Positions 13,581 to 62,409 of a stretch of DNA of 64,000 nt are shown here, piece after piece; position 1 is the stretch's first letter, and each line of letters begins with the position of its first letter. A program made the translations under genes and the position numbers. Origin of the DNA: Antedon mediterranea (taxonomy: Eukaryota; Animalia; Echinodermata); contig NC_092674.1 in NCBI RefSeq assembly GCF_964355755.1, positions 13,082,001-13,146,000 of the forward strand, read 5' to 3'. The notes under the pieces were generated by a model, which was not told where the DNA came from, ran no database searches, and was given only the letters and a program-made list of their open reading frames with translations.

Positions 13581-13671
<91 letters not shown>

Positions 13672-20516: not shown

Positions 20517-20558
20517 GCATTGTTGATTTTTTTTTGGAATTGAAAAAATTAAAAAAAA

Positions 20559-21188: not shown

Positions 21189-21287
21189 ATTGCTTGGAAG
21201 ATCGAATTTAGCACCAGCCTTGAGCAAAATAGTGCAAACATCTGTGTGGCCGTTTTGTGCAGTGTTATATAAAGGTGACGCTCCATC
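21189..21287 (-). CDS. Ankyrin-repeat exon (DGASPLYNTAQNGHTDVCTILLKAGAKFDLPSN)
   Basis: 99 bp, tttcag/gtaagt splice sites, phase 0/0. Confidence 0.92.
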
Positions 21288-23344
21288 CTGAAACATTACA
21301 AACATGATGTTATAGTAGTTTTCACTCTAAACAAAGTATTAATATTGTACTGAAATCAATACGATCAATTAAAAATAACGTTATGGATTCAAATAATGCT
21401 ACTTTGTTAAATTAAATAAAGATTATTAACCTCTGGTGTTTACTTTAAGATAATGTATTGTATACGTATACATTTGTCTTGTTTGTATAGTATTATTCAT
21501 ATAAGTACTGTACAAATGTAAACCAAATAAGTGTTTCTTTGCTTTTATCAGGTAGTGCTAACGAGTTAAAATTATGATAAAGTGGCGTTTGAACTGGCAG
21601 TTATGACAAAAAATATAATACTAGGATCCAAATTCTGTTCAACTAAATGCTTACTATTGGTTTTGTTTTAGAGTTACTGGACTGGAATAGTTTTTTTTTA
21701 GTTTTTTATTTTTTTTTAAGATGTTTTACTAAATAAATTGATATATCGATTCATATCCATTTAATGTATCATTTGCATAAAATAAATAATGTAGCTCGTA
21801 CAGAACAACACAATACAGAAACAGAAAAGTCACCATTAAAAAAAAATCATTCTCTAACATTCAGTGTTCTAAAGGCAGATGTTAAAACTATTACGGAATC
21901 TATTTGCACGAGGGGTGATGGACCACTTCCTTGAACTTCAAAAATAGTGCATGCAATAGGTTGGGTCTTGTAAAATCGAATGTGTTTTCTTAGTGTAAGG
22001 ATGTGGACGACAACAGTACAAAAGGAAAAAAACACGCCTTTTATCACTTTTACCACGGTCCGGTGGTGTATTTGGTTTTAATTTGTTTTTAGCATAACAA
22101 TAGAGATCAGTATGGTCCTGAAAACCACAAAATAAATACAATGAGAAACAAAAGTAAATAATATTCTAAAATACAAGCTAATTCTTAGTAACGACCTCAA
22201 CTTAACAGGCGACTCTAATAAAAAGGTTTCTCTCTGAGGACTGCGACTATTACATCAAACGGCACGTCTACCTAAACAGCCTCTGTATACTTTGTTAAAG
22301 TATACAAATACCTAATTAATTACCTACACAATTACATCATAAGTGCCTGAATATTACTAGAATAAATGCATGTTGGAATTTACTCACACTATTTGAATAC
22401 TAAACTTAGTCTATTCATTGAATCAAGGAGTTATAATCTTAGGTTTGCGTAAAATATAATAAACAATAACAAATCCATGGGCGCAGCCATTTTGTATGAT
22501 AAATAGAGGGCGCACTACATGACGATCTATCACGGTATCACATGGTAGCCTCGTGTGTACAAATTAATCAAGTGTGAACTGTAGGAATAGGATGAACTAT
22601 TTTATACAAACTGTTAACTAGAAATTATCTTCTACTGTATAAACTAAATATTACTAAATCTATCTAAACATAATTTGTTAATACAAAGAAGGTTTATCAC
22701 AAAAGTATATATTATAACATTATATGGCATAAAATCCTAGTTCCAAGATTGTAACACAATACTATTCAATAGGCTTCCTAACTGCACATTCCATGAGTCA
22801 AGGTTAAACCCAAAACAAAAGGTCTAGGCCTATGAATGTAATCATCTTAAAATACAACATTAATGTTTCTTAAGCATAACAGAATCTTTTAAATGTATAA
22901 CAAAATAATATATGTACAATGTAGAGTAATTACCTTTTAATCAGATCTTTAATAATTACATAAGAGACAAAACTATCTGCTTCCTTGACCGGTTCATGAA
23001 TACAAAAGAAAGCAAATCATTTGAAAAAGACTGTTACAATTATAGGAGGCAGTAACACCTATAGGGGGCAGTATTTAATTATCACATGATTAGAATAATC
23101 CCCACATTAGTAAAGTACTAATGATTCAAATTGAGATCTGCTTGAGATCTGCTCTGCTCGTTTGAGTTCATACGTGTCCTTTTGTGCCATTTTGATACCC
23201 TTACCCTTAATTGGTCGTGCCATTTAAGATCACTAGTGATTTATTTACAATCTCATCTTCAGAGTGGGTACCGTATTAATTTCATATTGTCACGATATTA
23301 CTGCCCGACACAAACACAAACTAGTAATAATAATAAGTAGCCAA

Positions 23345-26290
23345 ATATTGACATATTAAAAAAGGTTTCGATGTCCAATTTATCGAATCCTTTCAGTATT
23401 TTAAATACTTGGATCAGAGAAGCTCTCTTTCTCCTATAAACTAACGTAGGAAGATCAAGTATTTTTAGCCTACATACATACTCCGTACCCCTTAGTTCCG
23501 GAATGAATCGAGTGGCCTTTTGTTGTAGCTTCTCCAACCTATCCTAATCCGCTAAAACCTTAGGAACCCAGACATTATTACAGTATTCCAGGGTTGGACG
23601 TACAAGCGACTTGAATAACAGCAAAAAACTTTCAGGGTCCAAAAATGTAAACGCTCGATATATAATACCTAACTTCCTGTTAGCAGAAGAAATTAGCCTA
23701 CATGGGACACATGAGATCTAAAAATCAGTTTATCGTAAATTACAACGCCTAGGTCTTTCATCTCAGTTACAGCTTCCAGTTCTGTCCTCTGCTCGCCTAC
23801 TCCTATACTATATTTAAACTTGTGGTTGTTGTTACCAAAATGCATGATCTTAAACTTCGTTAGATTGAAGGGCAATTGCCATGTAGAGGACCATTTATAC
23901 AATAAATCAATATCATTCGGTCGATAGTTTAGCGGAGCTGACTTGTCTCCTTTCTTATAGAGCGGAACGACATCGGCATATTTCCAGGGTTCTGGAACCA
24001 CACCCTCACTCATTAATTTATTAAAGATAACTGCTAATGCTTCACCCAAAATATCTGAATTTTCTTTTAAAATCCTTGAATGGATCTCATCCGGACCTGG
24101 CGACTTACATATGTCTAAACCACTTAAATATTTAGTTATATCAGACGCTAAAAACTTCATATCATTGACTGGAATTATATCTGGTTTATCAGCCATTTCA
24201 GGAAACTCCTCAAGGTTCTCCACTGTAAAAAATCCAATAAACGATTCCTTAAATAATTCAGCTTTATTTATTTTTGACGACAGAAAATTTCCCTCATCAT
24301 CTTTTAAGTCTGGAATAAAAGGCTTATATTTTCGCTGACTATTTACATAATGCCAAAAGGATTTTGGATTTATTTTAACAGCTGACGCAATTTTTTTCTC
24401 TAAAGAAGCTCTTGCTTTGCGGACTTCATTGGTAGCTTGATTCCTAGCTAAAACAAAGCTATTCCAATTACTCTGATTTTTACATTTAAGATACTTATTC
24501 CATGCTTTGTGTTTAACTTTGATTATATTTTCTATCTCTTTATTAAACCATAGTTTATTAGTGGCTTTCTTATGATAAGCAGACCGAAGGGGTACAAACT
24601 TATATATGCATTCTTTTAGCTTTTCAGAGAGGTACAAAGATGCATGAGAAGTACCTAACACTTTACAGTTCTTAACTAAATCCGCGTCAATTAAATAATT
24701 TCTCATCCCAATATAATCAGCTTTATAAAAGTTTCTAGTTAAGGGAAAATTTTCTACTATGGGATATCCACATATCCTACATAAATGACAGAACTGCATG
24801 ATCGCTCTTGCCTAGAGGGGGACCATATATAACCGCATCAACGAAACATTCTTCTCGTGTAAAAATTAAATCCAATGTACGTCTACACAATACTGAAACC
24901 AAAAAACCTCCTCTGAAATATTTTAAAACAAAATCTGAAGTATCTGAATCACCTTGCGATTCCATTTTAACCCAATCGATATTCCTATAATTAAAGTCTC
25001 CTGCAACTAAAAGAAAATCTGCTTGAAAATGGTTTACCTGCTCCAATAACAAATTTAATAAAACATTATTCTCTTTAGAACTGCTTGGACTACGATAAAC
25101 ACAACCTTTTGCAAACATAAATGTAATTCTTCTTTCTTATTAAAAACAGAGTCACAGTTTGTATATAAACATAATAAACGATCTTTTTCTTTTAGCACAA
25201 TTGGACTAGTTTTGCTTAAAGACCCCTTCCCTGCAATTTTGGACGTTTTTTGGAAAATAATACATATATATCACTTTAAAAACATTAAACCATGTCATTC
25301 CTTGTCTTAAATGTACGTTTTATGGTAAATTATGATAAAAAGTGAGAAACAATGCACTACCTAAGTAGCTCGCGGCGATCGACCTCTCGTGGACGGTCTC
25401 AGGCCTAGCCTAGCTAGGCTTAGTTTTGTAGGCCTAGCTGGTAAACATCGGTAACGTACGAACATCGTACGCTAGCTATATACCTAGCCTGACGTTGTAT
25501 AGTTGCTGCATTAATTATCTTTCTATTTTTGCCAGACTCCGTTGATACAAATTGGGGAAAACCCGGTATTTTCGCTGAAAAGTTAGGAGTCTTCCATTTG
25601 TTTTGGCTTCACGATCGATCGAAAAGTGGGCGAATTACAGGTGAAAAACAACAATATCAATCCGCGCGCAATGCATTTTGGGATTTATAGCGGGCCGCTA
25701 TAATTATTAAAATCGATTTATTTTTCACATTTTTAACCGTTTAAAGACGAAAAAAGTTATCGCAATAGGACCATATAGTATTATTTTTACATTAAATATA
25801 GTTTGTGACCTTAAATTAGATCTAAAAAACGTAGGGAATGGGGCTTTAAGCCTTTATCAAATACTCGGTCCTTTCTTCCTAATTATCTTATTATTTCGGA
25901 TTATTAAGTCTAACTCCCCGTTAGCTTCTCTAATCAGGAGTTCTTGTTTTAGGCGTTTATATGCTTCGCGCTCCGATTTTAGTCGGTCATTAAATACCGA
26001 GAGATTGCTTTTCCTTTGTAATCTTTTCCGCGAGCTATCTTTATAAATTTGCGTTTATCCCATTCTGTACTAAAAATAACCTTAAGAGGTCTAGGCCCTG
26101 GCTTGTCCAAATCTCTTTTGCCAATTCGGAAACATAAAATAAAACTTAAATCTAAATCTTCCGCAAGACCCTTTACTACTCCCATGTCTTCCTCCTTCCT
26201 AATTTCCACTAAATCAGAGGTAGAGTCAACTAAACCGAACACCATAGCATTACATTTCCGCTTTTCTTTTTCGGCCCATTCATCAAGACG
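23345..26290 (-). mobile_element. CR1-like LINE remnant (ORF1 C-terminus, AP endonuclease, internally deleted RT)
   Basis: GCVYRSP, GDFNY, LGKSDH, NPKSFWHYV, KSPGPDEIH, VPLYKKGDK..NYRP, LEKLQQKATRFIP; ORF1 RIGK...PRPLKVIF; interrupted by the 25220-25845 MITE. Confidence 0.88.
25220..25845. mobile_element. Kolobok-type MITE
   Basis: TTAA at 25216-25219 and 25846-25849; AG...CT termini with imperfect TIR. Confidence 0.8.
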
Positions 26291-26314
26291 TATTAACCTA
26301 TTAACCTAACACAA

Positions 26315-26652
26315 CAACAGTTTAACCACTAACGTAACCAAATTTAACAACTAACGTAACCACTAACGTAACCACTAACGTAAACAAATTTAACAACTAA
26401 CGTAACCAAATTTAACAACTAACGTAACCACTAACGTAACCACTAACGTAAACAAATTTAACAACTAACATAACCAAATTTAACCACTAATGTAACCAAA
26501 TTTAACCACTAATGTAACCAAATTTAACCAGTAATGTAACCAAATTTAACCACTAACGTAACCAAATTTAACCACTAACGTAACCAAATTTAACCACTAA
26601 CGTAACCAAACTTAACCACTAACGTAACCAAATTTAACCACTAACGTAACCA
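26315..26652 (+). repeat. 22-bp minisatellite (TAACCAAATTTAACCACTAACG)
   Basis: Tandem units built from 11-bp half units; degenerate inverted counterpart at ~27385-27480. Confidence 0.92.
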
Positions 26653-28042
26653 AAGTAGAAATGTTCAGAAATCTCAGACAATTTGTGTTTTGAGAAGTCC
26701 ATTCATGTTTGTCTGTACGTCAAATCTCAATGTTTGAACTGTTAAATAATGGTGTTAAATGTAAATCAATTAAAACGTTTGTTTTCTATCCTTCAAAACG
26801 TTTAGACGTAATGGTCTTAATTTTAATCTCGTGTAAATGTAAATTCCAATCTTATAACTTCAGCCTATTTTTCCTATTTCGTCTGTCTGTGTGAGTGCTC
26901 TTTCCGCTATCAACATTGTAATGGTAAGACGTAACACAATAGTTTCCGTATGAAAACCTGGAGATACCTTATTGTGATGAAAGCCGTTACAATTCCATGC
27001 TTATCTTTCTGTTTTTCTAACAATATTCTTACTTTCAATGACGTGACACAATGTGCTTTTGTTGGCATACAAGTTTATTAGTTGATTAAGGTTTTCTGCA
27101 TATTCAACCATACATTTTATATTAAATTACGTTCGAAGGTTGAAAATGAGAAAATAAAAAAAAAACCAGAAGGATGGACAGAAAGTCAGACAGATAATCA
27201 TAGACCCAAAAGAAATTCAATATCAATACAGTTGAGGAAATAAATCCAACTTTCATGTGGAAAGTAAAACTTTATAATGTCCTACAGTTGAGAATGATAA
27301 TTTACTGATGGACGGACACTAAGATATTTTTTTAAATGAAAATCAGGCTAAATTGTTTTATGTCCATAATATTTCTACTACTGCTGTTACGTTTATAGTG
27401 GTTAATGTTACATTAGTGGTTGATTTGTGTTACGTTAGTGGTTAAGATTATATTAGTGGTTGATTGATACGTTAGTGGGTGGATACAGGACATAGATGGT
27501 CAACGTTTGCACAATACACAACCACACAGTGTTTTTGGTTTTGTTTGTGTACAACCATACAGTCTAAACCCAATCTTAGAATATCTCTTGCTAGATTAGA
27601 TGAATTAATATTATGAACATGCACAAGTACCTTAAATTTAATTCTACAATGAAAAGGATTCCAATGAAAAAAAAAAGTGGTTCTGCTCTAAAACGTAGTG
27701 ACACCTCAAATACAAGTTGTTTGGTAAGATTGCTTGAAGGTATCCAGTGCTTTAAAAGACAACGAAGTAAACTATCTTTGATAACTGACTTGTCAATATT
27801 AACTTTGACAAGGCACCGGTGTTCCGAACCATAATTATGTGAGAGGTACGACCGCCGTGCAGTTATCGACAGTACAGTCATCCTCGCTACAAATTACAGT
27901 ATCTATAATATGACCCGCATTGTGGTTGGTTCATTTACCTATATTATTACAGGCACGCCCATTAAATTGTAAAATTGTTATTATTTTTTTAATCACACTG
28001 AATTATATAGCACCTGTTATTAATAATATTTGTAACACTTAC

Positions 28043-28141
28043 ATTGTTTGGAAGATCCACTTTAGCACCTGCCTTGAGCAAAATAGTGCAAACGTCTGTG
28101 TGGCCCTTTTCTGCAGCCACATTTAAAGGCGACCATCCATC
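28043..28141 (-). CDS. Ankyrin-repeat exon (DGWSPLNVAAEKGHTDVCTILLKAGAKVDLPNN)
   Basis: 99 bp, tttcag/gtaagt splice sites, phase 0/0. Confidence 0.93.
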
Positions 28142-28552
28142 CTGAAATAATAACACACATCATGTTATATAAGTAGTAGTATAGTCTTCTACAAAAAGCT
28201 ATTTAATATTGTATTGAAATTTTTTCGATGTGATCAAGTAAAACTAGCTTAAAAGCCAGGTGAGGGCAAACAAATTCTATTGATCTTGCATTCCAATATA
28301 TATAGTTTCCCCTATGTTTAATAATGTTAGTGATTTTATTTGTGTTACACGAGCTTGTTGAAAATATGCACTTTATTATCATGGGGGATAGTTCAAATTA
28401 CACAATTAAATCTCTATTCATTTGTACACAAATGTTGTAAATAGAGAGGCAATTTAAAAAAAATAAAAATATATAGTATTGTAAAAAATGTTATCACAGG
28501 ACTAAATATAGATAATACTTCATAGTTTTATTTTCATGCTATAGCAAAAATT

Positions 28553-30598: not shown

Positions 30599-31126
30599 GC
30601 AAAAATTATCCACCGTATATCCACCATCTTTTTTCACCTTCTATAGAGTCACCGGACATGTAATTACACTAGGGGCCCGTTCGGACGGGACTGAAACTAC
30701 CGTGTACTTCCAACTGTGAGGTCGCGTGTGGCAATTAACTTACGCCTCTGGCTATAAAAAATTAGAAAACCATCTGGACGAAAAATCCACCAACTTTACT
30801 GGTTATTTCAATCCCATTCCAATTACACGCTGCCTCGGGGTATAATTAATCAAGCGTTAACGGGGTCATGTCAAATCGCGACCTCAAATAAGCTTTCTGA
30901 TTGTTTAACAATTATTGTTTAAAATGTTCTTTTTCGTTAATGCGAATGTATATCTATTGTTTTGTAAAATTATATTATATAAATAATCAACTCGTTGGTT
31001 TTTTTCCGGTGACCTGAACTTGCGAATCGGTGGCTTATAATAGCGAGCTTTCGTAACGGGACGGTAAACGTGCAGTACGGCTGGTTTAACCAACCGTGAC
31101 CGTACTCATTTACTAGGCTCCCATCA

Positions 31127-31495
31127 GCGTAATTTTTTTTTCCAGGACGAACGTGGGCAGAAATCATGAATAATTCATGAATAATTATGACATAATAGGG
31201 AACAGTATAGAGGGCGCTATATAAGTATGCAGGGATATTAATAATTAGTGTAAACAGCGTTTGCCAAATGTTTGGTCTAGTGGTAAAGGCTTTAACCTGT
31301 TACGCTGGAGCCCTCGGTTCGAGGTCTTTCATGAACATGTTTTTTTTTAATAGTTGAGAGAGATTATTTAGAGGGTTAGGTTTAGTATATTTAGGAAGTA
31401 GATCAGCTATCTTGCAATTCTTTATATAGAAAATAATTAAGGTAATGAATTATTCATGATTTCTGCCCACGTTCGTCCTGGAAAAAAAAATACGC
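31127..31495. mobile_element. MITE with ~50-bp TIRs; truncated single-end copies at ~345-424 and ~45260-45343
   Basis: gcgtaattttttttccaggacgaacgtgggcagaaatcatgaataattcat and its reverse complement; no clear TSD. Confidence 0.7.
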
Positions 31496-31572
31496 CGACG
31501 GGCGTATGTGCGCGACGTCATAGTGCGACAGGTATCATTATCAGTTTTCTCGGCTTTCAGCATCTCACACAA

Positions 31573-31752
31573 CATGGCGAACCTACATAGGGTACGAGAT
31601 GCTCTTGATGCTGCCTATATTTCAGATGTTCTAGACGAGGAAGAATTCATTATGTTTTATAGTATGAATTCTCCAAGTAATCCTGATTTTCAGTATATTC
31701 ATCAATTCAACTTAGATAAATTCAACGATGATGAATGCAACAGCTATTTCAG
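31573..31752 (+). pseudogene. N-terminal fragment of a PIF/Harbinger-group transposase
   Basis: MANLHRVRDAL...DEEEFIMFY..N...FNLDKFNDDECNSYFR resembles the N-terminus of DDE_Tnp_4 proteins; no downstream exons found. Confidence 0.5.
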
Positions 31753-33579: not shown

Positions 33580-33654
33580 TTTGGTCTGAAGATCCAATTT
33601 AGCACCTTCCTTGAGCAAAATGGAGCAAACATCTGTGTGGCCATTTTGTGCAGA
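33580..33654 (-). pseudogene. Decayed ankyrin exon (..AQNGHTDVCSILLKEGAKLDLQTK) that has lost its 5' end and splice acceptor
   Basis: Donor intact. Alignment to the 37386 exon shows the first ~9 codons and the acceptor CAG replaced by a few bases (gcagatataaatattac vs gcagccacatgtaaaggtgacgctccatcctgaaatattac). Confidence 0.85.
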
Positions 33655-36600
33655 TATAAATATTACAAACATTATATTATAGAATTTTCTCTCTCTAAAC
33701 AAAGTATTATAATATTGTCCTGGAATCAATACGATGTGATCATTTAAAAATGACGTTATAGATTTAAATTATGCTACATAGTTAAATTAAATAAAGAGTA
33801 TTAACCCTTTTCTTTAAGATAATGTATTGTTGTATACATATACATTTTTTTGTCTTTCTTGTAGGCCTATAACATTTTTTTACAGTGTTTTATAAATTTA
33901 TCAAACAAATAATTGTTTTTTTCTTTTTTGGCCTGAAAAGTAAACACTTCATCCGATAGTGCTAACTAGTCTGAATGTAAACTGACAGTTACAGCTAAAA
34001 ATATATCTAGGCTCCAAATTCTGTTCAGGTAACATGACACTTTGACTGCAAAATTCTTACAATGATTACGGAATCTATTACGAGAGGTGATGGACTTTTG
34101 CTTTGAACGTCAAAATAGAGCATTGGATAGGTTGGGTCTTACAAAATTTGTCAAGTTGTCCTCAATAAAGTCTCTTATAAAAATGAATCAAATTGAGATT
34201 TGCTTAATTATAACTACTGTAAGTGAAGCATAACTAAAAATACGTTCCAGCTAATTCTTACATGGTGAATAATGAGAATATTTTTAATGACAGATTTATA
34301 AAAAAAAGACTTAGGCCTATGGGAGGTTTAACTACAAAAGATTTAAGTCTACGGAAAAGTAAAGTCTATTTGATACTCTCATTAATGAGGTCGTGCCATT
34401 TAGGATCACTACGGTAGTGATTTATTTGCAATCTCAACTTCAGATTGGGTACCGTACCGTATTTCATGATTTAGGTGATTTTCCTATTTTTGTTGGTTAC
34501 TTTGGGTGGAATATACTGTATGGTACTGCAAATAAGCAAATCTATAATAATAACCCACTACTCTAATATTAACCCATGGGGGTTACTCTTAAAGTCACAA
34601 ACACTTATGATGCAGCTGTATTTTGAAAATAAGGAGATAATGAAGGTTGATCTTGGGAGTGGGGGGAGGATTGAGTGTTTTTGAGTTCAAACAAATTTGT
34701 TTATTCGTACTGTTTTATTATTTTGCTATGAGTTGCTGACCAGAAAAGTTGGGGTGGGTTACTATTTTCAGGTGCCTAATTTAAGATTAGTAATAGTAAC
34801 CCATTAATAGTTCCATTCCATAATAACCCATTCCAATAGTTAACCCACCCTAAAAAACAATCAAAGAATAATAACCCAGGGTTACAATTAGAAGATTTAC
34901 GGTATATAGAGTACTGCAAACCATAATAGAAGGTAACATTTGTTTTATTTGACACGACAAAGCATGTGAACTCCCCAAAAATGTACCGTATTTTAATGTA
35001 CTAAATTTTAAATGTTGACATGGCATAATAAACATTGAAAGTTCTTTCTAACAGAGTTTTTTCTCGGGGTACTCGGATGTTCTACTTAATTTTTGTTTTA
35101 TTTATTGTAATGCGCCGTGTTCTTTTTTTATCTTTGATTGTATATTGTTTTTCAATAAGCGTGCGGAGGATTCAGGTAATATCTCTTTAAAGGGTAACAC
35201 CGCGGCTTTAAAATGTATATTACTTATTATACAGATATTGCCTGCTTAGAGATGAAATATAAGATTTGACAAGTGAATGATATTATGTTCGAGGGAATAT
35301 ATATTTCCTGAAGCGTAGCACGTGAATGAACCTGTCATTTCTTCTGAAGGATCTGTCTGAGAAGGACAGTGAAACTGCAAAAAGCAGGTTAGTTTAACTA
35401 ATTTTTTTTTCGAAAAGAATTAATAATTCACATGCCGTATCGTTACAAAATCTCAGCGAAGCCATAGTAATTATTTCATTAACATGCATACTTGTCTAGG
35501 ACAAACATCTGAAAAGAGGCCTAGAAATCAGATAGGGGAAGTGGAATGTTACGGGTAGTCAATGTAGCCATTATATCGTATTAATCCATTCTGATCACTC
35601 TTAAGACTTGTTGACACCTAATTGTTTACATAGACTATACCCCACTTCAAGTATTATTAAATTATAATAATTATGACCTATCCACGTTCTATCACCATAT
35701 TAAATAATTTGTCATTGTTTAAAGAAAACATTAATCATGATGTTTTTAAAGTGTAATCAGTGCTACTAAGCGCCTTTGATGTTTACATTGGTAGTTAACT
35801 ACTGCAATACAAATAACTACTTATCAATATAAGTGTATGCAAGTTACTTTTTGGTAACTTAAAATTAATTGTCATAAACAGGTTGTTAAATGATACTGGT
35901 AAGTACTTTTGTGTCTAATTTATCCAAAACAATATTATTTAAATTATAAACTTTTAATATTAAATCATTGGACAGTTTGTGTGATATGTGTAATGTTATA
36001 CTTGCTAATTTTAAAAAAAAAGTATGAAAGCAAACATAACAACAGACAATGATTACTAGTTTCCCGAATAATTGTTGAATTAAACTAAAATTTGAACTCA
36101 ACTCATCATCGTGATGATATCGGGATATCCGCGTTAACGCACACAGTGTAACAAACATCTTGAAATACACTCATACTCTATAAACTGAAAACATGTATAG
36201 TGCTGAATTATGTCTATTATGTGTCATACAGTACTAAGTGCGAATAACCAATAAAGTAGTGGGTTTTTTATCGTAAAGAAAACAAAGCATTTAATTTGAT
36301 ATTTTTCTTGATAGTATAATATTCAATTGTTTGGTGTATATCACTGTTATGAGTCCAGGTAAGCACAACTGTGACATCTATTGTCTATAAACGTCTATAA
36401 ATTTCAAGTCCTTTATTGTCTGACTTGGTTTTGAATGAAGTTATAGGCCTTCAAATTCAAATGTCAAATGAATACTAATATTGGTGTCCTTCCTGCATGA
36501 TCTCAAGCTCTTCCGCTAGTCACCTAATCCACCAAAAATATTGGTATGCATACAGAGAGTCATGTCAGGAATAAACAATGTAAGTCGCTTATTACGAAGA

Positions 36601-37385: not shown

Positions 37386-37484
37386 TTTTGCCTGAAGATC
37401 CAATTTAGCACCTTCCTTGAGCAAAATAGTGCAAACATCTGTGTGGCCGTTTTGTGCAGCCACATGTAAAGGTGACGCTCCATC
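37386..37484 (-). CDS. Ankyrin-repeat exon (DGASPLHVAAQNGHTDVCTILLKEGAKLDLQAK)
   Basis: 99 bp, cag/gtaagt splice sites; contained in ORF 37311..37559. Confidence 0.93.
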
Positions 37485-43923: not shown

Positions 43924-45889
43924 CATCAGTTATATACATTATAATGATTTCAGATTTGACAAAATAATTAAAACTGATTACTTTCCGGTTATCAGAAAAC
44001 TTAAATGTGTTAACATTTACATAAACAATGGTACGAAGACGTAAACTTACTGTGAGCTTCTGCATGTAATATATACTATTAAGAGGCTAATTATGCTTAT
44101 TTCAAATAACAGTTCGGAATAGTTGGATTTTGTTGCTTATGTTCGAAATTGTCTTTTATTTCAAACTCACAAAAACGGGCAATGAAAATTTCGTTATTAA
44201 AAACATTATTTAAAGCTTATTCAGTATAGTTAAATTATTCAATTATTCATTTATTTATATGTGTTGTTCTATTTTTTTTCTTTTTCCTTCGTTAGATAAA
44301 ACATGTTAGTGATAAAATGCTAATATTCTAGTTAACATTCTTCATTTAATGATATTCCCACAAATTGCACTGTTTATGTATACTTAAATAGGACGGTAGC
44401 TCTTTTCGTATATTTGTTGCTGTTAGGATAATAAATATTTCACTTCAAAAACTTTCCAAAAATAGTGTTACACAACAATGACAACGTGTCGCCATAAAGC
44501 AAATATTCAATTCACAGGAATTCAGTACATTATTGTTTTATATTATTGTAATTCGATGTTTTCTTCACTTCAATTATTATCCTATTGGAAAAAAGGGTTT
44601 AGTCGCGTTAACTTTAGATCTGCAAGTGACAGAGAAGCTTTTCTCTTGTCCGATGTCAGGTGGTGATTGAATCTGAGTTAAACGTTTTTAATAAAGCATT
44701 TATTAGATTTTAGTAATACTTTACGTCACCCTTAATAGGTATTAAATGTCATTTTAATATGCATTTTCGACTTATAGTATATTCAATATATTTCATTCTT
44801 GTGTTTGATTTGTTTAGTCTGTAAATCAACAATGTAATTATTATTACTCTGAAAGGGTCTTACGTGACAAGATTTTTTATCTTCTAGTATTGATCCTATT
44901 ATAGTTTCTTTATATCAATTCTATTTTTATCTTTTTACTATTTGTTTGTTATACTGAGCCATTTATGAAATACATGTTGTTGAATTAAATTGATTTGAAT
45001 GAATATTATTATAAATAGTTTGTCTTGAATGAAGTTTAATTTAATTTGAATTGCATGTTTATTGTATTAACATTTGTCTGTAATTGCAGTATTACTTTGT
45101 TTAAAATGAATCTTACAGAAACAATGGTACTTCCTACTAGTAGTAGGCCTAGTATTGTCGTGGATGCCATTCCATTTTCAGATTGTTATTTGTAAATTAA
45201 AGTGCAATTAACCCAGCAATTGTCATATTTCATTTAGAGTAGTACGTCCTGTACGCCCTCTATAATGTTCCCTATTATGTCATAATTAATCATGAATTAT
45301 TCATGATTTCTGCCCACGTTCGTCCTGGAAAAAAAAATTACCCGTCCGTACTTAGAATTTACTTTGACAATAATTTGCTCACGGTTGTATGGCGGCGCCC
45401 TTCCACATAACCTTTATCCCATCCCATCCCATTGAAACCGAATTTAGACATTTTTAAATAGATTTGATTTGGTACGCTACCAATAATACTACTGTTTTTA
45501 TAATACAGTAGAAAGATTTCTCGCCTATGTAAACAAAAGAAGGGTTACTTCTTGACACTCTCAAAAGGCTTTTTAGATTGTTGCTATTAATTCGGTTCGA
45601 ACGTAAATGAGTTGGCAGTAAATGAATAGAAGTTTTAAAAGGAAGTTAAAGTGAGGCGTATGAATGAAGGTGAGCGAATAAGGCCTATTCCACATCTTTG
45701 TGTGTGATTGATGCGTTTATACCTATAGACACTGTTATAATACATTCTGTAAAAGCATGTTTCATTGTTGTTGCCGACGGATCGATTATGATGTTATGTA
45801 TAATACAGGTCATGATTATTGTTATTAAAATAGGAAAATAATCTACTAAATTGTGTTTGTGTTGTACCATGTTGTGTTTCAGTTACTGA

Positions 45890-47108
45890 ACAACATAGTT
45901 CTGCTGGTTCTGTTACTTAGATAAGAAGGGGACCTATGCTCGAGGACTATTCATAGACTTTTCATCTGCATTTAATTTGAGGCAGCCTCATATTTTAATG
46001 AATAAAATGTCTGAATGGAAGGTTAATCCTTACCTTGCTCTATGGGTTGGTGATTTTCTTACAAATCGGCTACAGTATGTTAAAGTTGGTAAATCTATCT
46101 CAGAGATTAGAAGGATCAACACTGGTGTACCCCAGGGGTGTTGTCTGTCATCAATTTTATTTACAATATATACTAGTGAATGTCGATCTTCATGTAGCAT
46201 GTGTCATATAATCAAATACGCAGATGACATGGTACTGATTGGTCTATTGAAAAATGCTGACGATCATGTGTATAAGGCTGAATATGTTAAATTAATGTCA
46301 TGGTGCAATGACAATTACCTTAAGATTAATTTTAATAAAACTAAAGAAATTATATGGGATTTTAGGAAAAAGAAAAATGAAAAAAGTTATCTGATAGTTA
46401 ATGATCAGACAATTGAACGTGTTCATGAAACCAAATATCTTGGTACACATATTGATGATCAACTTAGTTTTGAAAAAAATACGGCCGAGATAATTAAGAA
46501 AGGTCACCAAAGGTTATATTTCCTAAGAAAGCTAAATAAATTTAATGTTAGCTGTGGTACTTTAAAATTATTCTATGAAACAGTTATTCAATCAGTACTA
46601 GTTATCTCTTTTATTGCTTGGTTCGGTAATTTAAATGAAACACACAAGAAAGGTCTCATTAGAATTACTAAGATAGCATCAAATATAATTGGTTATATGT
46701 ACGGTTAATGATTTAAAATATCTTTATGAAAAACAGGTCCTAAGTAAATTAAGTAAAATTTTAGAAGATAAGAAACATCCATTACATATGATCTTTTGTA
46801 AGAACAAGTCAGGTCGGTTACGGGCTCCTAGAGCTGATACGTCAAGAAACCGACTGTCTTTTGTACCAAATTCAACTCATATTTTTAACTCAAAGATTGT
46901 TAGATCATAATAGCGCACATGCAATATATATTTTAAAGTTTTACCGTTGATGGATGTTTAAATTAATGTTTTTAAATTGTAAATTTGTTCTATGTATGAT
47001 GTAATTATGAATGTTTTACCATATTTTTCTGTCGAGGAAAACAATTTTTCCATGTACAATTTATTTTATTTGGAACGAATAAAGATTTGATTTGATTTGA
47101 TTTGATTT
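45890..47108 (+). mobile_element. 5'-truncated LINE (Rex1/Babar- or L2-like) with (GATTT)n tail
   Basis: DFSSAFN, GVPQGCCLS, YADD, QRLYFLRKL motifs; AATAAA followed by gattt repeats at ~47079-47108. Confidence 0.85.
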
Positions 47109-47411
47109 ATACAACAGTACTTTATAATAATATTTATTAAAATGTGCATATATAGAATACAATTTTGCTTATGTATCGCTGTTTCACATTGATCAAAGCG
47201 ATTGACATTATTATTACAATGTAGTAGCAGTTAACAATATATATATATCAATTATGTATTGAATGAAATTTAAAATCACTTTATTTTTTATTAATACGTT
47301 CATTTTAATAATGCTTTTAAACCAAAATTCAGATTTAACCAGTCTAATTTGTGCTGGAGAAAGAGCAGTTCAGAGCACAGGATCGGCTAAATGCATGACA
47401 ATCACCTGAAA

Positions 47412-47485
47412 CTAGTAATTGGATTGTACAGACGCCTAGTAATTGGATTGTACAGACGCCTATTAATTGGATTGTACAGACGCCT
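47412..47485 (+). repeat. Three copies of a 24-bp unit (TAGTAATTGGATTGTACAGACGCC)
   Basis: Direct tandem repeat. Confidence 0.9.
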
Positions 47486-49426
47486 GGTGTCATTCTCACA
47501 CCGAAGTCCCTTTCTGTTAAAACCATAGGGTCTAGTAAAATCTCGAAGGTACTCTGACGCTAGATTATCGAGACAATTATGAACATTTAAATGTCTTACA
47601 TTGCATTCTACAATGTAAAGGAAGCCAATGAAGCTCAAAAGGAAGTAATATAAGTCTAGCGTTTTGTAATATTTTCATTTTTTTACCAAAGATACCAACA
47701 AACTCCGTGTTACATTAGCCCGGTCCACAAAGGGACCATTGGCATTAGTGCACGTCGTATTAACTTAAAACTTTCTAATTCTGCATAGACCTCTCGCTCA
47801 CCCTCTAGTAAGTGTGGACGATGGATGGACTGTTTAATAAAAAACCTCGGTTACCATATAATTATTGAAATTACTATTTGTAAAATAAACCTAGTCTGGT
47901 TGTCAGTGCCATTTTTAGACTAAATAAGATGAGGAATATAACAGTTTCATGTAACACATTATCAATTCCTTTAACTTTTAAAATTATATTCCTATGATGG
48001 ATGTGGACAGTAGACATAATCAATGATACATGACATTTCGCGTATTATCATATTCATTCTCGGTAACAGTGGGTTCAGTTCTGTGGTGGGTCAAATCGCA
48101 TACAATAAACATTTAATTGGCGGATGGTCAAACATTGTAGTTTTATTTTTCCCTATTCATACCTATATTTATTTTATTTTTTTTTATTCACTTGACAACC
48201 AATTACGATGAAACCGCCACTAACAGGTTGAATGTATATGAATGAATGCTGGTCAAGCACATCACAAGATGACAGTTTTATACTTTTGCTTTTCCGCTAC
48301 TCTCCTGTTATACTTATATGTTTGTTTTTTTGCTATGTAGAAAGATTGAAAATAAATAAATAAATAAATGTAAACATAATAAACTATAATAATACATTCA
48401 AATATGCAACAATAACATAAACAAAAATCGGAACACTATAGAGATTTAACAATTTTACGATGAAATACATTTAAACTATCATAAAATAAATCAATATCCA
48501 AACAAGTAAAAAGCACACTATTAAATGTGTTAGGTAACCGCTGAAAATACATGTTTTGTGCATTCAACACGACCACCAACTTTGTTGCCTCCAAATAATA
48601 ACACTAGGTATATTACCCGGGTCGTTATATGTTGGGTTTTGTACATAATGTAGGGGACACCTCATGAAACGTCACCAAAAACATGCATAATGCAGTAGTC
48701 ATATGCGTCTTGCCCGGGTCTCTGGTTTCCATCGGCGTGGTCATGTTATCGAGAACCATTCATATACACTCACTGGAAGGTGAGAGAGCAAAGCAAACGA
48801 ATCTAGTTATTATAAATACGCTAACATTTACCTCATGGAAAACATTTAGCTCGTAGTATCATGAACGTGCGCATATAGCGCATCGTGGTGTTAAGCCGAA
48901 TCACAAAATTATTAGTGAAACGCATAATAACATTGCAGTAATTATTATTAATTCATAAATTTAATGAAAATATAATCAAACAAAACAATTGTTCTGGAAG
49001 TTGTTTAAGGGTTATGTTAAAAGAAACACATCGACTACGATTTATTTTTAAACAATGTTAATATATGTTTTGGTATCGGAATATGTCATATTTTCGATGA
49101 ATTAAATACACTTATTTTAATAGCTACAAGATATATATTCAACTGTAACATTAAAGAAGACCCACTGTATTTTAATAAATTTAAAGTCATTGTTAAAAGA
49201 AATATTGAAATAGAAACAAATGTTGATTTGAAAATGATAATATGCATACAACCTAAATGAAACAATTAGGAGTATAGTCTACCTTTTAACTACCATGATA
49301 TGTATAAATGTTTGTTTGATTGTGTTTTGTTTTGTATCTTGTTGTTGAGAACCATTTTTTTTTTGTCTTGTTGCTACAGATGGTGGCGCATTGTTGTTTT
49401 TTTGTAATTGAAATAATAAAAAAAAA

Positions 49427-49690
49427 TATTACAAAATGCGACAGCAGTTATTACAAAGTGCGACAGCAGTTATTACAAAGTGCGACAGCAGTTATTACAA
49501 AGTTCGACATCAATTATTACAAAGTGCGACAGCAGTTATTACAAAGTGCGACAGCAGTTATTACAAAGTATGCGAGCTCGATTACTACAAAATGCAAAGG
49601 TTATCACAAAATGTGACAGTTTTGTCACCATGTGCGCACGACAGGTATTACAAAGTATTATGTGACGATTATTACAAAGTGCGACGGTAC
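49427..49690 (+). repeat. 22-bp tandem repeat TTATTACAAAGTGCGACAGCAG, about 6 core units
   Basis: Direct tandem repeat without spacers. Confidence 0.9.
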
Positions 49691-50155
49691 AAAGAGGGTT
49701 TACAGATAGTTATTATATATGCGATGTTTTTTTTTTCAAGACAGTTTATCAGGAATCAATCCTATTTTTGTTCTTTCTTGAGTTAAGTTTAGGGATCATT
49801 AATTTGAAAAACAATAGTTCTTTGGTGAGATCTTGCTTGGAGGTTTCCAGGTCACGGGGTTTAAATTACCGCGACTTTTAAACTATCATTGGTTGATCTA
49901 ACTGCCCAATGTCAAGATTAACCTTGACAAGGTAGCGGTGTTCCGAGCCATGTGAGGGGTACAACCGTGCAGTTCTCGACAATACCGTAATCCTTGATAC
50001 AAAGTATGAAATGATATATGACCCGCAATGTGAGTTGGTTCATTTAGGTATGCTATGTACGCCGGTACGCTCTTTAAATTTTAAAATTAAATATGTATTT
50101 AATCACACTGAATTATATAGTAACACATACTATTATTAATGTTTGTAACACTTAC

Positions 50156-50254
50156 ATTTCTTGGAAGATCCAATTTAGCACCAGCCTTGAGCAAAATAGT
50201 GCAAACATCTGTGTGGCCGTTTTGTGCAGCCAAATATAAAGGTGACGCTCCATT
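50156..50254 (-). CDS. Ankyrin-repeat exon (NGASPLYLAAQNGHTDVCTILLKAGAKLDLPRN)
   Basis: 99 bp, cag/gtaagt splice sites, phase 0/0, ankyrin consensus. Confidence 0.93.
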
Positions 50255-51035
50255 CTGAAACATTACAAACATTATGTTATAGTAGTTTTAACTCTAAACA
50301 AAGTATTAATACTGTACTGAAATCAATACGATCAATTAAAAATAGCGTTATGGATTTAAATAATGGTACTTTGTTAAATTAAATAAAGATTATTAACCTC
50401 TGGTGTTTACTTTAAGATAATGTATTGTATACGTATACATTTGTCTTGCTTGTATAATATTATTCATATAAGTACTGTACAAATGTAAACCAAATAAGTG
50501 TTTCTTTGCCTTTATCAGGTAGTGCTAACGAGTGAAAATTATGATAAAGTGGCGTTTGAACTGGCAGTTATGACAAAAAAATATAATACTAGGATCCAAA
50601 TTCTATTCAACTAAATACTTACTATTGCTTTTGTTTTAGAGTTACTGTTTTACTAAATCAAATTGATATATCGATTCATATCCATTTAATGTATCATTTG
50701 CATAAAATAAATAATGTAGCTCGTACAGAACAACACAATACAGAAACAGAAAAGTCACCATTAAAAAAACATCATCCTCTAACATTTAGTGTTCTAAAGG
50801 CAGATGTTAAAACTATTACGAAATCTATTTGCCCGAGGGGTGATGGACCGCTTCCTTGAACTTCAAAAATAGTGCATGCGATAGGTGGGTCTTGTAAAAT
50901 CGAATGTGTTTTCTTAGTAAAGTATCTAATGATTCAAATTGAGATCTGCTTGAGATCTGCTCTGCTCGTTTGAGTTCAAACGTGTCCTTGTGTGCCATAT
51001 TTATACCCTTACCCTTTATTGGTCGTGCCATTTAA

Positions 51036-55633: not shown

Positions 55634-56936
55634 TCAATCCAAAAATCCAGCAAACTGGAAATCATCTTCCATACCTGGTGGTGGGAAGTGGGCTCTTATG
55701 CAGGAAACGGCACATGATGGTAAGACTACCCTTAGGTTTCGGCCCAAAAACCCCCAACACCATCTGGCGAGTTGCCGGTACGCAATATGTCTCAGACGTT
55801 TATGTGTTGAGGCTTTAACAGGTGTGTCGTACTGTTGGTGGTAATGCAGCCATGCAATTTCCAACACATGCAAATTCAAACAGGCAGCAGTGAATCCAGA
55901 ATGTTCAGTGATGCATATGTAGGCTTCTCCGTATTGTAAATTGTCTGACCTTCCTCCAGCCTATGATTAATAAATAATAGGGCCTACTTCCTGGCAACAT
56001 CGACATTCGCGATACGTGGGTAGCATCTGGCAATGGCCACAATCACACCTGTTTTATAAAAACAAAAATATTTTGTAATAATAAATAATATTGTAGCGCT
56101 CTAGAGCGCTACAATATTCTGAGATGTCACAATTTATAGGGCGCTATATTAAATATTTTTAAAGTTTTAGTGATTATTAATGATTAATTTAATGTATTGT
56201 GTGTGAAATAGGAAAATAAATCTGCATCTTGGCTAGCCTTAGGGGTGGGCCTATCTATCTAGGCCTACCCTAGGCCTATTTCAAACAACAAAGTGCAAAT
56301 TTGTTAAATAAAATGGTCAGTCTAATAGTAATACCGTAATGTACATTTTTGCTTTCTACGATTCAATTTAGCCTAATCTTTATTTCGTTAAAAAAATTCA
56401 ATCTAGGCCGTAGGCTTATAGACGATAGCCGACCGTCGCCGGTGAGAGGGCTAGCCGCATGAATTGGAGTAAAGTACAGTAGTAGGGCCTAGCCTCTATC
56501 TAGGCCTAACTAAGCCACAATACACACACTGGCATGACGGAAGAATATCGTAGTTATCTAGGCCTACTAGGGAATTGTTAATTATACAATAAAGTTATAC
56601 ATTAATTTTTAATAAAAGAGATAGTACTACTAACCAATTTAATAACTGGGTTTGAAGTTGAATATTCTCTGCTTGAATTGTAGGTAGGCCTAGGCCTACT
56701 AGGCTAGGTGACGGTCACCGTCGCCATCTTCTGATGATGAAGAATCGTCAGAACTACAACCGGGCTCGTACATGTACGGCCGAATTAATTTCATCGACAT
56801 TCCATTCAATATTTCGATTGTTAAACAAAATAGTTTCTCCTTCATTCTCCTCAGTTTCGCATTCCACTATCAATGTTTCCTCTTCTAATTCCTCTGACGA
56901 AGAACTGTCAAAATCATACGCAATACGTGTTGACAT
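55634..56936 (-). pseudogene. KolX / Nanor-like protein (P2X7 C-terminal ballast-like Cys-rich domain), decayed
   Basis: CDCGHCQML..RECRCCQE, CITEHSGF..ACLN..VL, RHIAYRQLARWCWGFLGRNLRVVLPSCAVSCIRAHFP; in-frame stop and frameshift near 55920-55970. Confidence 0.82.
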
Positions 56937-58329: not shown

Positions 58330-60880
58330 AGTATTATGTCAATGAGGCTTAGTAGTATGCCACATGCAATATGAATTGAGAAAAAGAAAAATAACGACAA
58401 TTGTATTATTAAGAAAAAAAATTTGGTAACGAATTGATTGATTTTTGCACTGAGTATAACTTGGTTATATCTGATTTGGAATACTTTGGTCATTACTCAG
58501 ATACGTTTACTTATTTTAGTGATGCTCACAGTACCACAAGTTGGTTAGACCATGTTGTGAGCACTCATAGTTCCCATCTCTGCTGTGTAATTTTATAGTT
58601 AATTATGATTTTATGTGTTCTGATCACTTTCCTATTTCGTTTGACTATTTATGCATTGATATTTGTGATGATTGTAATGACAAGGGTGAAAATATGCATG
58701 AATCCTAAAAAATTATCAAAGTTAACTGGAATAATGTTAAGAGGGAGGATATAAACAATTTTAATGAGATAACTGAATCCTTACTTAGTAACCTTACTCT
58801 CAATTGCGATGGTTTACTTTGTAATGATTCCTCATGTAAAGATGAATGCCATTGCAATGATATTAGTGATTTATATGACAATATTATTGAGTGTCTGAAA
58901 GTCAGTTCTGAGTGGTGTTTTAAGTCGACTAAAAATCAAAAAGTCAATGTTGTCCCTGGGTGGAATAACCGAGTAGCTGGATTTCATAAACATGCTCGGG
59001 AAGCATTTTTGAAGTGGCGTGAGTTGAGTAAACCCAGATATGGCCACATCTATGAACACATGAAAATCACTAGATCTAATTTCAAAAATGCCCTCAGAAA
59101 GTGTAAATCCAACGAAGAAATGCTAAGGGCGGACTCGATGGCCAAGTCTTTTGACGATAAGGACTATAATAGTTTCTGGGGTAAGGTTAAGAAATCCAGT
59201 TACGCCAATTCCCAGTCTAACATTATTGGTAGTGCTAAGGGGCAAAATGACATTTGTGACCTATGGCGTCAACATTTCTCCGATTTATTTAATAGTATTG
59301 ACTCATCTGAGCATAAGACTTTTGTTAATGAAACTCTTGAAAACTGTACAGACGGTGAAATTGATGTTTCACCCCATAATATTAAGCTTTTAATTGACAA
59401 ATTGCCCAATGCTAAAGCAGCGGGATATGATGGTCTATGCAATGAGCATTTCAAATTCCCTTCTGAGCGACTTAGTATTATTTTAAGTGTATGTTTTAAG
59501 GCTATGTTTGTTCACGGGTTTGTTCCAAGTAATCTCACAAAAGTCACGCTTGTGCCGGTAATTAAATCTAAATCAGGGAATATCACTGATAAAAGGAATT
59601 ATCGGCCAATAGCTTTGGCATGTGTAGCTTCTAAACTTCTAGAGTCTGTAATGATACAACATTGTGGTAATTCACTGGACTCCCATGACAACCAGTTTGC
59701 CTTCAAATCTGGTCACTCAACCGAATTGTGTATATTTGCTCTTAAACAGATTATCGAGCATTACAACAATCATGGTAGCCCAGTTTATTGCTGTTTCTTG
59801 GACGCTAGCAAAGCATTTGATAAAGTGAACCACTGGACACTTTTCAAGACCCTAATTGACAGGGGTACCCCTTCACATGTAGTTAAGATACTGAGGTCAT
59901 GGTATATGAATCAGGAATTTGTTGTCAGGTGGGGAAGTTCCGTTTCCGATTCTTTCACTGTTCGTAATGGGGTTCGCCAGGGAGGCGTTATGTCACCTCT
60001 TCTTTACAATGTGTACACTGATCCGTTAACTGTTGAACTGACTAAGTCAAAAGAAGGTTGTGAAATTAACAGTCTTAAACTGAATTGCCTAAGCTTTGCC
60101 GATGACTTGGTCCTTTTGGCTCAGTCAGTGACTGGCTTACAAAGCCTAATTGGACTCTGTGAAGGTTTTGCTAGTGACCATGATATTACTTTTAATGAAA
60201 CCAAATCCAAATGCTTGCTATTTTGCCCGAAACCTCGAAGGTGTTCCACATATTACCTTAAATGGGGCACCTCTAATCGTTGATAATTCAATAACCTATC
60301 TTGGTCATGTGATCAGTAATAACCTGAGTGATGAAAGTGACATCAAACGTCAATATCGATCTATTTGCATTAGGGCCAACTCTCTAATCAGAAAGTTTGC
60401 AAAATGTTCTAATAAGACTAAATGTTATCTATTTAAGAGTTACTGTGTCAGCATGTACTATTCAACCTTATGGTGTAGATATAATAAGAGCACTCTGAGA
60501 TCACTGAAAGTATGTTATAACAATGCCTTACGTCTGCTGCTGAAGCAGCCTAGACATTGTAGTGCAAGCATGATGTTTTTCTTAAATGACGTCCCATCCT
60601 TTGATGAGTTCATTAGAAAATCTGTTTTTAGTTTTAAAAATCGTGTGAACGCAAGTAGTAATTCCTTGATCATGGCCATTAATCGCCACGTTCTTAATGT
60701 GTCAAGAATGCACATACAATGGAATGCTTTGTTGCATTGACTTTATATATTTACATATCTTTGTTTTTGTTCTATGAGCTGTTAGATTAAGATTTTTTTG
60801 GGTTTTTTTTTCTCTCTTTTGCTATGGATAAAATATTATGTCACCATGATATTCCGAAATAAAAAGATAAATGAAAAATG
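58330..60880 (+). mobile_element. LINE remnant (RTE-X-like) with endonuclease tail and RT
   Basis: SWLDHV, SDHFP, NYRPIAL, FLDASKAFDKVNH, GVRQGGVMSP, FADD, LFKSYC motifs; frameshifts; AATAAA at ~60858. Confidence 0.85.
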
Positions 60881-62310
60881 AAATTATTGTGACCGAATTA
60901 ACGCTTTAAAAAAGCATTATTAAATACATACCGATAGGTCTATGTGAACGACCGACACTAACCACGATACATTACTTTTAATTACTCTTTGTAGGTCTAC
61001 ATTTAGTCTTTGATCACTACATTGGATGCGTTATTGTGTTGCTTGTAAACAGTCATTCTACATGCTTTAGATCATAGAAATAATTACTTTGTTATATTAT
61101 AATATAGGAGTAACTGTACATTTAATGTACGATAAACAATCGCAATTGACATACTACAAATAATGTAAACCAATATTGCTAGAGTTTCATTAAAGCAAAT
61201 GTTTCTTTTATGTTTGAATGCAATTATATTTAGCTAGACTTATTGTTGTATTAATTTAGATACACAAATAAAAATAGGAAATTATAAGAAGAAACATTCG
61301 GGAATTACCAATCGTGATCTTAGAAATTATGTTCATGACAAATGTGTCTATTTTAATATTTGAAGTAATCTTTTCTTTATATTATGTCATTTGAACAATT
61401 GAATAGAACATGAACTCAGTACTTACGGATTTTAACCCACGAAGCATCAACTTTTGCAATCGAACATTTTACCGGCACAAACGAAGCAAATTGAAAAAGT
61501 TAACATGTTGCTGATCTGGTAAATACCATTGAAATGTTAGCGAAACAATAAGCCATGTGTCTTAGAAAAGATAGTATTACGGTTTCTTTATTTTCTGATG
61601 TCATCGGTAGACTTGTAACGGCGGTAAAGTTACTTCCGAGTTCGTTTTCACTTTGCAATGTCCGGGTTGCAACTAAAACTTCGCGTGAACGTGACATGTA
61701 CATTTGATATACATTTGAGTCAAAATATTCCATATTTTTCTCTTTAAACAAATTTTTAAAAAATGAACTAATTTATATTAATTATACTGTATATGGTTTG
61801 GCTATTTAATATTATTGTAACTCAGACTGTTTAAAACTTAATGAATAAATGACTCTTAATGTTTAATATGTTATAAATTGTGAATCCACTACGATACGAC
61901 GTGACGTTATTATTACAGTTGTAGACTATGTATAAATATTATAATGTACCGCGATGGTAAGCCGACTCGCAATAAAATTAATAATATTAAAAGTAATATT
62001 TCTTATTAATTTATAAAGATTAAACAAGTTATTACAAAGTGTGACATCAGTTGTTACAAAACCTTGGTTAATCTGACTTTCCAATTTCAAGATTAACCTT
62101 GACGAGGCAGCGTTGTTCCGAACCATGTGAGGGGTACAACCGTGCAGTTCTCGACAATTTAGTTGCAACAAAAATGATCTGTAACCCGCGATGTGGTTGC
62201 TTCATTTAGGTATGTTATTACTGGCACTCTCTTTAAATTGTAAAATTAAACACTTTTTGAATCACACTGAATTACATAGTAATATTATTATTAATGTGTG
62301 TAACACTTAC

Positions 62311-62409
62311 TTTGGTCTGAAGATCCAATTTAGCACCTTCCTTGAGCAAAATAGTGCAAACATCTGTGTGTCCGTCTTGTGCAGCGAAATGTAAAGGTGA
62401 CCCTCCATC
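62311..62409 (-). CDS. Ankyrin-repeat exon (one 33-aa repeat, DGGSPLHFAAQDGHTDVCTILLKEGAKLDLQTK) of a multi-exon ankyrin gene
   Basis: 99 bp, open frame, flanked by tttcag acceptor and gtaagt donor, phase 0/0; matches ankyrin consensus G-x-[ST]-P-L-x-x-A-A-x-x-G-H...LL..GA. Confidence 0.93.

Follow-up and report, generated by a model that had tools for sequence, protein, structure and literature searches.

A stretch of 64,000 nucleotides from the crinoid Antedon mediterranea (NCBI RefSeq assembly GCF_964355755.1, contig NC_092674.1, positions 13,082,001 to 13,146,000 of the forward strand), referred to below at its full length as the window, was analysed for a set of short ankyrin-repeat (ANK) exons and for the selection acting on them. 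A six-frame scan combined with tblastn across the whole window revealed a single type of ankyrin repeat in six copies, five intact and one broken, each of them on the minus strand, and no further ankyrin-like exon was detected by these searches in the 64 kb. The intact copies are, in transcript order, exon A (62311..62409), exon B (50156..50254), exon C (37386..37484), exon D (28043..28141), which is the most divergent, and exon E (21189..21287), the last in the window; they are separated by introns of 12,056, 12,671, 9,244 and 6,755 nt. Each is 99 nt long, in phase 0/0 and flanked by AG...GT, so that both splice sites and the reading frame are retained in all five. Their products exceeded the cut-off of the Pfam Ank profile PF00023 (5/5; E value of 2.8e-08 for exon A) over a 33-residue match with TPLH-like and GH motifs, and the pairwise protein identity of the repeats was approximately 73-88%. 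The broken copy, designated X (~33580..33657, minus strand), has lost its acceptor and approximately the first eight codons (~24 nt missing), has kept its donor and, in the alignment, carries a change at codon 19, which is invariant in the other copies.

The six exons are tandem duplicates, each copied together with 0.5-1.5 kb or more of intron. Self-BLAST aligned the unit around exon E (20557..21994, minus strand) with positions 49512-50918 around exon B at 91% identity, and the flanks of the two exons differed at 44 of 1181 aligned bases. A larger block around exon B (44926..51035, minus strand) was piecewise colinear with positions 1-23227 around exon E (1-459/44926-45376, 5295-5781/47945-48576, 17964-18624/48700-49392 and 23107-23227/50914-51035). 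The B and E units are colinear across at least 6 kb, the E-side block being stretched by transposon-like insertions. A GC-richer block of ~45 nt, located ~190-240 nt past the donor (20925-21000 and the matching stretches for A, B, X and D), was apparently better kept than the adjoining intron in five of the six units and may represent a splicing element or an old repeat; an Rfam search of the whole window, this block included, returned no matches. An exact 34-base pattern of the exon core gave no match among metagenome contigs. No RNA data set was among the public sequencing runs listed for this sequence, which says nothing about expression. The contigs of four of the 14 runs listed, compared with positions 20400-38400, covered the introns and behaved like DNA, and no exon-exon joints were present among the contig matches listed. 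At base 21204, every covering contig in all four runs carried a leucine codon instead of the Phe28 codon of exon E, which hints at differences in copy content or alleles between animals, with the caveat that contigs drop variants.

The codon differences among the intact copies were compared with those reported in a preliminary description of this DNA, in which the substitutions were said to be nearly all non-synonymous and to sit on the binding surface used in designed ankyrin repeat proteins (DARPins). The columns quoted there proved exact (in the order A, B, C, D, E, whose starts on the minus strand are 62409, 50254, 37484, 28141 and 21287: codon 3 G/A/A/W/A, codon 7 H/Y/H/N/Y, codon 8 F/L/V/V/N, codons 11-12 QD/QN/QN/EK/QN, codon 32 T/R/A/N/S), as did the invariance of residues 14-23, the restriction of silent differences to four codons (4, 13, 16 and 24) and the seven differences, none of them silent, between exons B and E. 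A total of 12 of the 33 codons were variable, since codons 1, 9, 24, 28, 31 and 33 had been left out of the earlier table; three of these (9, 24 and 28) lie off the concave face of the repeat. The scarcity of silent changes carries no weight as evidence, because a random change is a replacement in roughly three cases out of four (of the 27 minimum changes, 4 were silent, against a neutral share of 23.5%, p = 0.20). The closest pair is likewise uninformative: at the flank rate of B and E, 3.7 differences are expected per 99 nt, the probability of seven or more is 0.08 and that of none being silent is 0.41. The complete TTG/AAC swap highlighted in that pair belongs to a single contiguous 4-nt change at codons 8-9 of exon E, so the seven differences probably amount to four events, against 3.5 expected. 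Nor does the invariant core call for the homogenised scaffold that had been proposed, as purifying selection after recent duplication explains it.

The distribution of the changes over the repeat was more telling. In the AlphaFold model of XP_071950050.1, the closest homologous protein, helix 1 corresponds to codons 5-12 and helix 2 to codons 15-23 (repeat region pLDDT, the predicted local distance difference test score, 64-91 in blocks of ten; below 50 from residue 173, which makes the Roc half unreliable). The invariant stretch is therefore the outer helix, and the variable sites occupy the hairpin together with a single face of helix 1. In order to tell a binding face from any surface, positions with an entropy of at least 3 bits in 541 non-redundant natural repeats (from 1382) were split by repeat side. 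All nine naturally variable positions on the concave side (codons 1, 3, 7, 8, 11, 12, 31, 32 and 33) vary in the window, compared with two of the nine on the side of helix 2 (p = 0.002). Consistently, in repeats 2 and 3 of XP_071950050.1, which come from another assembly and had been held out, 7/9 concave versus 1/9 outer positions differed from the window majority (p = 0.015). The two fastest sites, codons 8 and 32, correspond to DARPin positions 10 and 1. The six positions randomised in DARPins are 2, 3, 5, 13, 14 and 33, and repeat positions 1, 9 and 10, which are variable here, belong to the framework in classical DARPins. Under a common numbering, which was assumed for both synthetic libraries, all six DARPin positions vary in the window, and so do all six ANK-N5C positions (6/6 versus 6/27, p = 0.0008). 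The latter are described as 2, 3, 5, 10, 13 and 33 (PMC4308713). A regional mutation hotspot was considered as a source of the clustering and rejected, as the silent positions of the neighbouring codons 2, 5, 9 and 10 are invariant.

Rates were evaluated with MG94 codon models (our own code) on the tree ((A,C),(B,E),D), using 444 intron columns from the flanks of the copies as a neutral clock; the 30 nt before acceptors, the 12 nt after donors, the unalignable downstream flank of C and upstream flank of D, and copy X were left out of the calibration. All statistics rest on five exons of 33 codons, and the small-sample caveat of the preliminary description stands. The exon-only omega was 1.2 (0.7-1.2 overall). 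The site models that the description had suggested, run with this code and not with codeml, supported a positively selected class (M1a/M2a and M7/M8, likelihood ratio test (LRT) statistics of 10.8-13.2, p 0.001-0.005) with a posterior of 1.0 at codons 8 and 32, and the intron-calibrated unguided test gave p 0.002 without multinucleotide changes and 0.02-0.11 with them. A test at fixed sites has more power than such unguided models. Measured against the introns, the nine concave codons had an omega of 2.5-2.7, the nine outer-helix codons one of 0.34-0.38 and the 15 framework codons one of 0.06-0.07, and a concave omega of 1 was rejected in all three multinucleotide settings (p 0.0004-0.0016). 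Without codons 8-9 the concave omega was 2.0-2.1 (p 0.02). Relative to the exon's own silent rate, which was approximately half the intron rate with no clear difference between the two, omega was ~5. Parametric bootstrapping (600 runs per setting) gave p values of 0.002-0.005 at the fitted neutral rate, 0.003-0.012 at 1.3 times and 0.023-0.047 at 1.6 times that rate, i.e., under 0.05 in 12 of 12 settings. Tree-free counts in two four-copy subsets pointed in the same direction, with 13/27 and 15/27 concave bases polymorphic versus 39/175 and 64/222 intron columns (p = 0.008 each). The six ANK-N5C positions, taken as a set, had an omega of 2.1-2.5 (p 0.01-0.05).

The identity of the gene was approached through its relatives. 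The best of the 120 matches listed was XP_071950050.1 from A. mediterranea (86% identity), whose repeat 1 is identical to exon B at 31 of 33 residues (21/33 in the next best fetched protein); its mismatches with exon E are at residues 8, 9 and 32. This model is probably truncated at its 5' end, because its first six residues correspond to the intron sequence preceding exons B and E. Its layout comprises four ANK repeats (repeat 1, two more family repeats and a divergent capping repeat) followed by the start of a Roc domain (25.4 bits, versus a cut-off of 27), and it stops before COR. If exon E were repeat 1 of this protein, the later exons would lie beyond position 1 of the window. The Roc portion places it in an enlarged crinoid family. 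With a Roc-COR relative as the query, 20 of 20 matches were Antedon proteins; the stretch from cap to Roc was matched by 123 representatives, and the 10 that were looked up all came from Antedon or Anneissia. The architectures of the relatives included ANK-Roc-COR-Death, DED-Roc-COR and Roc-COR-HEPN. Among relatives not linked to this locus, P0276 has the full ANK-Roc-COR-Death arrangement, and Death or DED is found in P0276, P0268, P0282 and P0247; no STAND (signal transduction ATPase with numerous domains) module of the NACHT or NB-ARC type was found in the closest relatives, which carry Roc instead. The ANK repeats of the other family members are divergent, with at most 20/33 identity to the window repeats. 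The crinoid ANK-Roc(-COR-Death/DED) proteins XP_071950050.1, XP_071945430.1 and XP_071945850.1 (A. mediterranea) and LOC117112651 (Anneissia japonica) are all annotated as uncharacterised. A large Roc-COR expansion (P0238-P0311), the named members of which are from crinoids, was noted; it has swapped N- and C-terminal modules (ANK, DED, Death, HEPN_DZIP3) and is annotated as uncharacterised. A homology query with the ANK and Roc parts of P0061 was crowded by generic ankyrins, and Atlas look-alikes of P0276 formed ANK/Roc/Death clusters in molluscs, arthropods and sponges, a lead suggesting that this architecture may be widespread.

The exon structure, the duplication, the single dead copy, the strong constraint on framework and outer helix and the surplus of replacements, compared with intron DNA, on the hairpin/helix-1 face are directly seen in the data. 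We favour the reading that the exons encode the ankyrin sensor domain of a crinoid ANK-Roc-COR-death-fold (ROCO) gene, the concave face of which is probably under diversifying selection and the scaffold under purifying selection. Exons A-B-C-D-E would be spliced in tandem, with X skipped, and joined to further repeats, the capping repeat and Roc exons past the left end of the window. Constitutive tandem splicing is the default reading because the homologous model joins its repeats serially and no docking-site pairing was found. Mutually exclusive exons of the Dscam type were tried and rejected, with six of seven flank pairings within 1.5 standard deviations of shuffles, one non-adjacent pair at z = -3.0, and the relative joining its repeats in tandem. 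Duplication or loss of a symmetric exon leaves the frame intact, and copy X is such a loss. Repeats could accordingly be gained or lost by these phase-0 exons without a frameshift, and selection would keep new repeats stackable and favour new residues on the partner-binding face. The ligand may be a variable non-self protein, microbial or allogeneic, and the output a GTPase/death-fold signal. In Roc proteins, an N-terminal repeat sensor coupled with a GTPase switch and a death-fold output form a layout proposed for counter-invader systems (PMC8195603). A bolder version, which we regard as quite unlikely, would make the locus part of a natural DARPin library in feather stars: in-frame ankyrin exon cassettes, interchangeable, pooled across the genome and diversified at the paratope, would be combined through exon skipping and exchange between loci, would feed an expanded family of Roc-COR-death-fold receptors and would endow a deuterostome with a repertoire of intracellular recognition that varies between individuals.

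Several results weigh against the favoured reading of diversifying selection in an ANK-ROCO sensor. The p value of M1a/M2a rose to 0.03, 0.06, 0.09 and 0.17 as the rate of double and triple changes was increased (0.08 when this rate was fitted) and to 0.23 without codon 8. The intron-calibrated test reached only p 0.08-0.11 when multinucleotide changes were allowed at a fixed silent rate, and the tree-free test on all five copies gave p = 0.08. The six DARPin positions alone were not above neutral (omega 1.6, p = 0.2) and were rejected as the selected set. Outside criteria defined the nine-codon set, but the table was already known when the set was chosen, and tests were run on four site sets in all. 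The tree is contradicted by three of the eight informative sites, which all fall in codons 3, 8 and 32, and exchange between copies may therefore inflate omega. The 64-kb window contains no Roc, COR or capping exon, and the later repeat exons of XP_071950050.1 are likewise absent from it. Finally, concave positions were more variable than outer ones in 50 of 50 further ANK arrays of high identity, most of them from bivalve NTPase proteins (fetched proteins with at least 5 distinct tandem repeats and at least 60% mean identity, mutually related and not independent), so immunity cannot be diagnosed from the asymmetry alone. The codon table of the preliminary description was confirmed, and so was the clustering on the hairpin/helix-1 face; its claim of diversifying selection is partly supported, by the site models, the concave excess over introns and the mapping of the variable sites, though less strongly than the description implies, with unguided significance lost when multinucleotide mutations are allowed or codon 8 is removed. 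The support exceeds what the description's own arguments justify.

The alternative that survives best, possible if unlikely, holds that the scaffold is constrained and the concave face merely neutral, the excess arising from a few multinucleotide mutations at codon 8 together with small-sample noise. The fading of the unguided tests fits this explanation, as do the event count for B and E given above and a two-class model (~45% of sites at omega 0, 55% at omega 1) in which exons and introns evolve at the same rate (r 1.0-1.08). Copy X, too, has a lesion at codons 7-8. Furthermore, the 7-mer created in exon E (21262-21269 region, codons 7-9) occurs 27 nt upstream as well (~21308-21314), which fits a one-step template switch, but this is only a lead, the 7-mer being common (34 times in the window). 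Multinucleotide mutations are a known source of false positives (10.1101/165969). However, the fixed-site excess survives multinucleotide rates of up to 10%+5%, the removal of codons 8-9 and a neutral rate 1.6 times higher; only one multi-base run was present among 42 flank events; and the outer helix is constrained here at its surface positions, which vary just as much in natural ankyrins.

It is very unlikely that the variable codons were instead imported from divergent paralogous exons by short gene-conversion tracts or unequal exchange, in which case omega would reflect shuffled older variants. The confinement of homoplasy to codons 3, 8 and 32 would be expected under such exchange; the summed contig depth of the exon E flank was ~8-17 times that of nearby unique-looking DNA in the four public runs (depth is no copy number), some contigs joined flanks of different copies (short joints being weak evidence), and in fungi an exchange of repeats has been documented for those of high conservation (PMC13449251). 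However, five of the eight informative sites fit one tree and the downstream flanks likewise group B with E, no donor copy is in hand, and conversion alone, without selection, would not restrict change to one face. Neutral decay of pseudo-exons of a dead gene, which the broken copy (1/6), the transposon relics in the introns and the overall omega might evoke, is hardly credible and already largely refuted, since the even spread of variation named in the preliminary description as its mark was ruled out (uniform neutrality rejected, LRT 39-44 on 3 degrees of freedom, p<1e-7), only 3 of 45 framework bases were polymorphic versus 35 of 88 intron columns (p = 3e-5), frame and splice sites were kept in five copies, and codon 19 was changed in the broken copy only.

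The reading of the locus as a diversified ANK-ROCO sensor was compared with known systems. The NACHT-ANK NOD-like receptors (NLRs) of Podospora anserina are described as having near-identical 33-residue ANK repeats with five positively selected positions, the selected and polymorphic sites located on the inner helices as well as on the beta-hairpin (Dyrka et al. 2014, PMC4986451). The window shares with them 33-residue ANK repeats that closely resemble one another and positive selection at concave-face positions, subject to the caveats of the unguided tests; it differs in that theirs is a fungal STAND ATPase and this is an animal gene with a Roc-bearing relative, in which each exon holds a single repeat and the introns span 6.8-12.7 kb. 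Polymorphism of repeat number across isolates is a further feature of the Podospora genes (PMC4986451, PMC13449251). High internal conservation has been defined as 85% over 100 residues (PMC4986451) or 0.7 to the consensus (PMC13449251); the window repeats, measured by pairwise identity and not by Psim, are under the former threshold and within the latter range. Such repeats are reported to be enriched in NTPase receptors across life, including animals (PMC13449251). Brown-algal ROCO genes have one leucine-rich repeat (LRR) per 72-nt exon, dead exon copies, positive selection on the concave face, alternative splicing and family expansion (Zambounis et al. 2012, PMC3341825; Teng et al. 2024, PMC11378527). 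The window resembles them in having one repeat per symmetric exon (5/5 intact copies), probable concave-face selection and one inactivated exon copy in an intron, as well as in family expansion and in a predicted Roc-COR GTPase with an N-terminal repeat sensor, the Roc link here being only via the homologous gene model. Unlike the algal genes, it has ANK exons in phase 0 instead of LRR exons in phase 2, and none of its copies in the 64 kb is inverted, whereas inverted intronic exon copies occur in the algae. The locus works like these receptors, yet it is neither an NLR nor an LRR-ROCO gene. Bivalve ANK-array proteins (Mytilus, Crassostrea/Magallana) with PF20720, under the UniRef name 'Novel STAND NTPase 3 domain', also have high-identity arrays that are more variable on the concave face than on the outer helix, and unlike the window family they carry a STAND NTPase and not Roc. 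The pattern was sharper in the Mytilus ANK-array NTPase proteins P0005, P0014, P0020, P0034, P0041 and P0069, in which variation between repeats was 0.00-0.05 on the outer helix and 0.40-0.53 on the concave side. Like the DARPin and ANK-N5C synthetic libraries, the window repeats combine a fixed scaffold with a variable hairpin and helix 1; unlike classical DARPins, their fastest sites are positions 10 and 1, and position 9 is also variable. ROCO expansions in a basal animal (PMC4104024) and ROCO-TIR genes in Aplysia (PMC9334734) have been described; PMC6337361 and PMC8683736 provided background only.

Repeat receptors with a conserved scaffold and a variable face have already been described in fungi (ANK, tetratricopeptide and WD40 repeats on STAND ATPases) and in brown algae (LRR exons on ROCO GTPases). 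The locus reveals no new principle, and its function is a prediction. Both themes meet in it, an ankyrin sensor and, via the relative, a Roc GTPase; each exon encodes one repeat, and the animal lineage concerned is one in which immune genes have received little attention. Searches of the open-licence literature, supplements aside, listed no publication describing an expansion of ANK-ROCO genes in crinoids or selection acting on exons of this type, nor one reporting ANK, single-repeat exons and Roc together in a crinoid. The locus suggests that a candidate family of intracellular non-self sensors has been overlooked in echinoderms, and repeat positions 1, 9 and 10 are candidate naturally varied paratope sites.

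The remainder of the window is AT-rich, intron-like DNA with relics of retrotransposons and DNA transposons. Approximately 12 kb of the E-side block (5782-17963) is missing from the colinear B unit; this segment contains a reverse-transcriptase open reading frame (9639-11429) with flanking inverted copies (8533-9210 and 17501-17920), and pieces of Harbinger-like DDE, MADF and BESS domains lie at 11540-16532. A minus-strand open reading frame at 55637-55960, in the intron between exons A and B, matched P2RX7_C (PF20478, E value of 3.5e-13) and is probably part of a transposon-borne gene. Further reverse-transcriptase relics resembling long interspersed elements were located at 58709-60737, 45899-46705 and 23696-26305, in the introns between the ankyrin exons.

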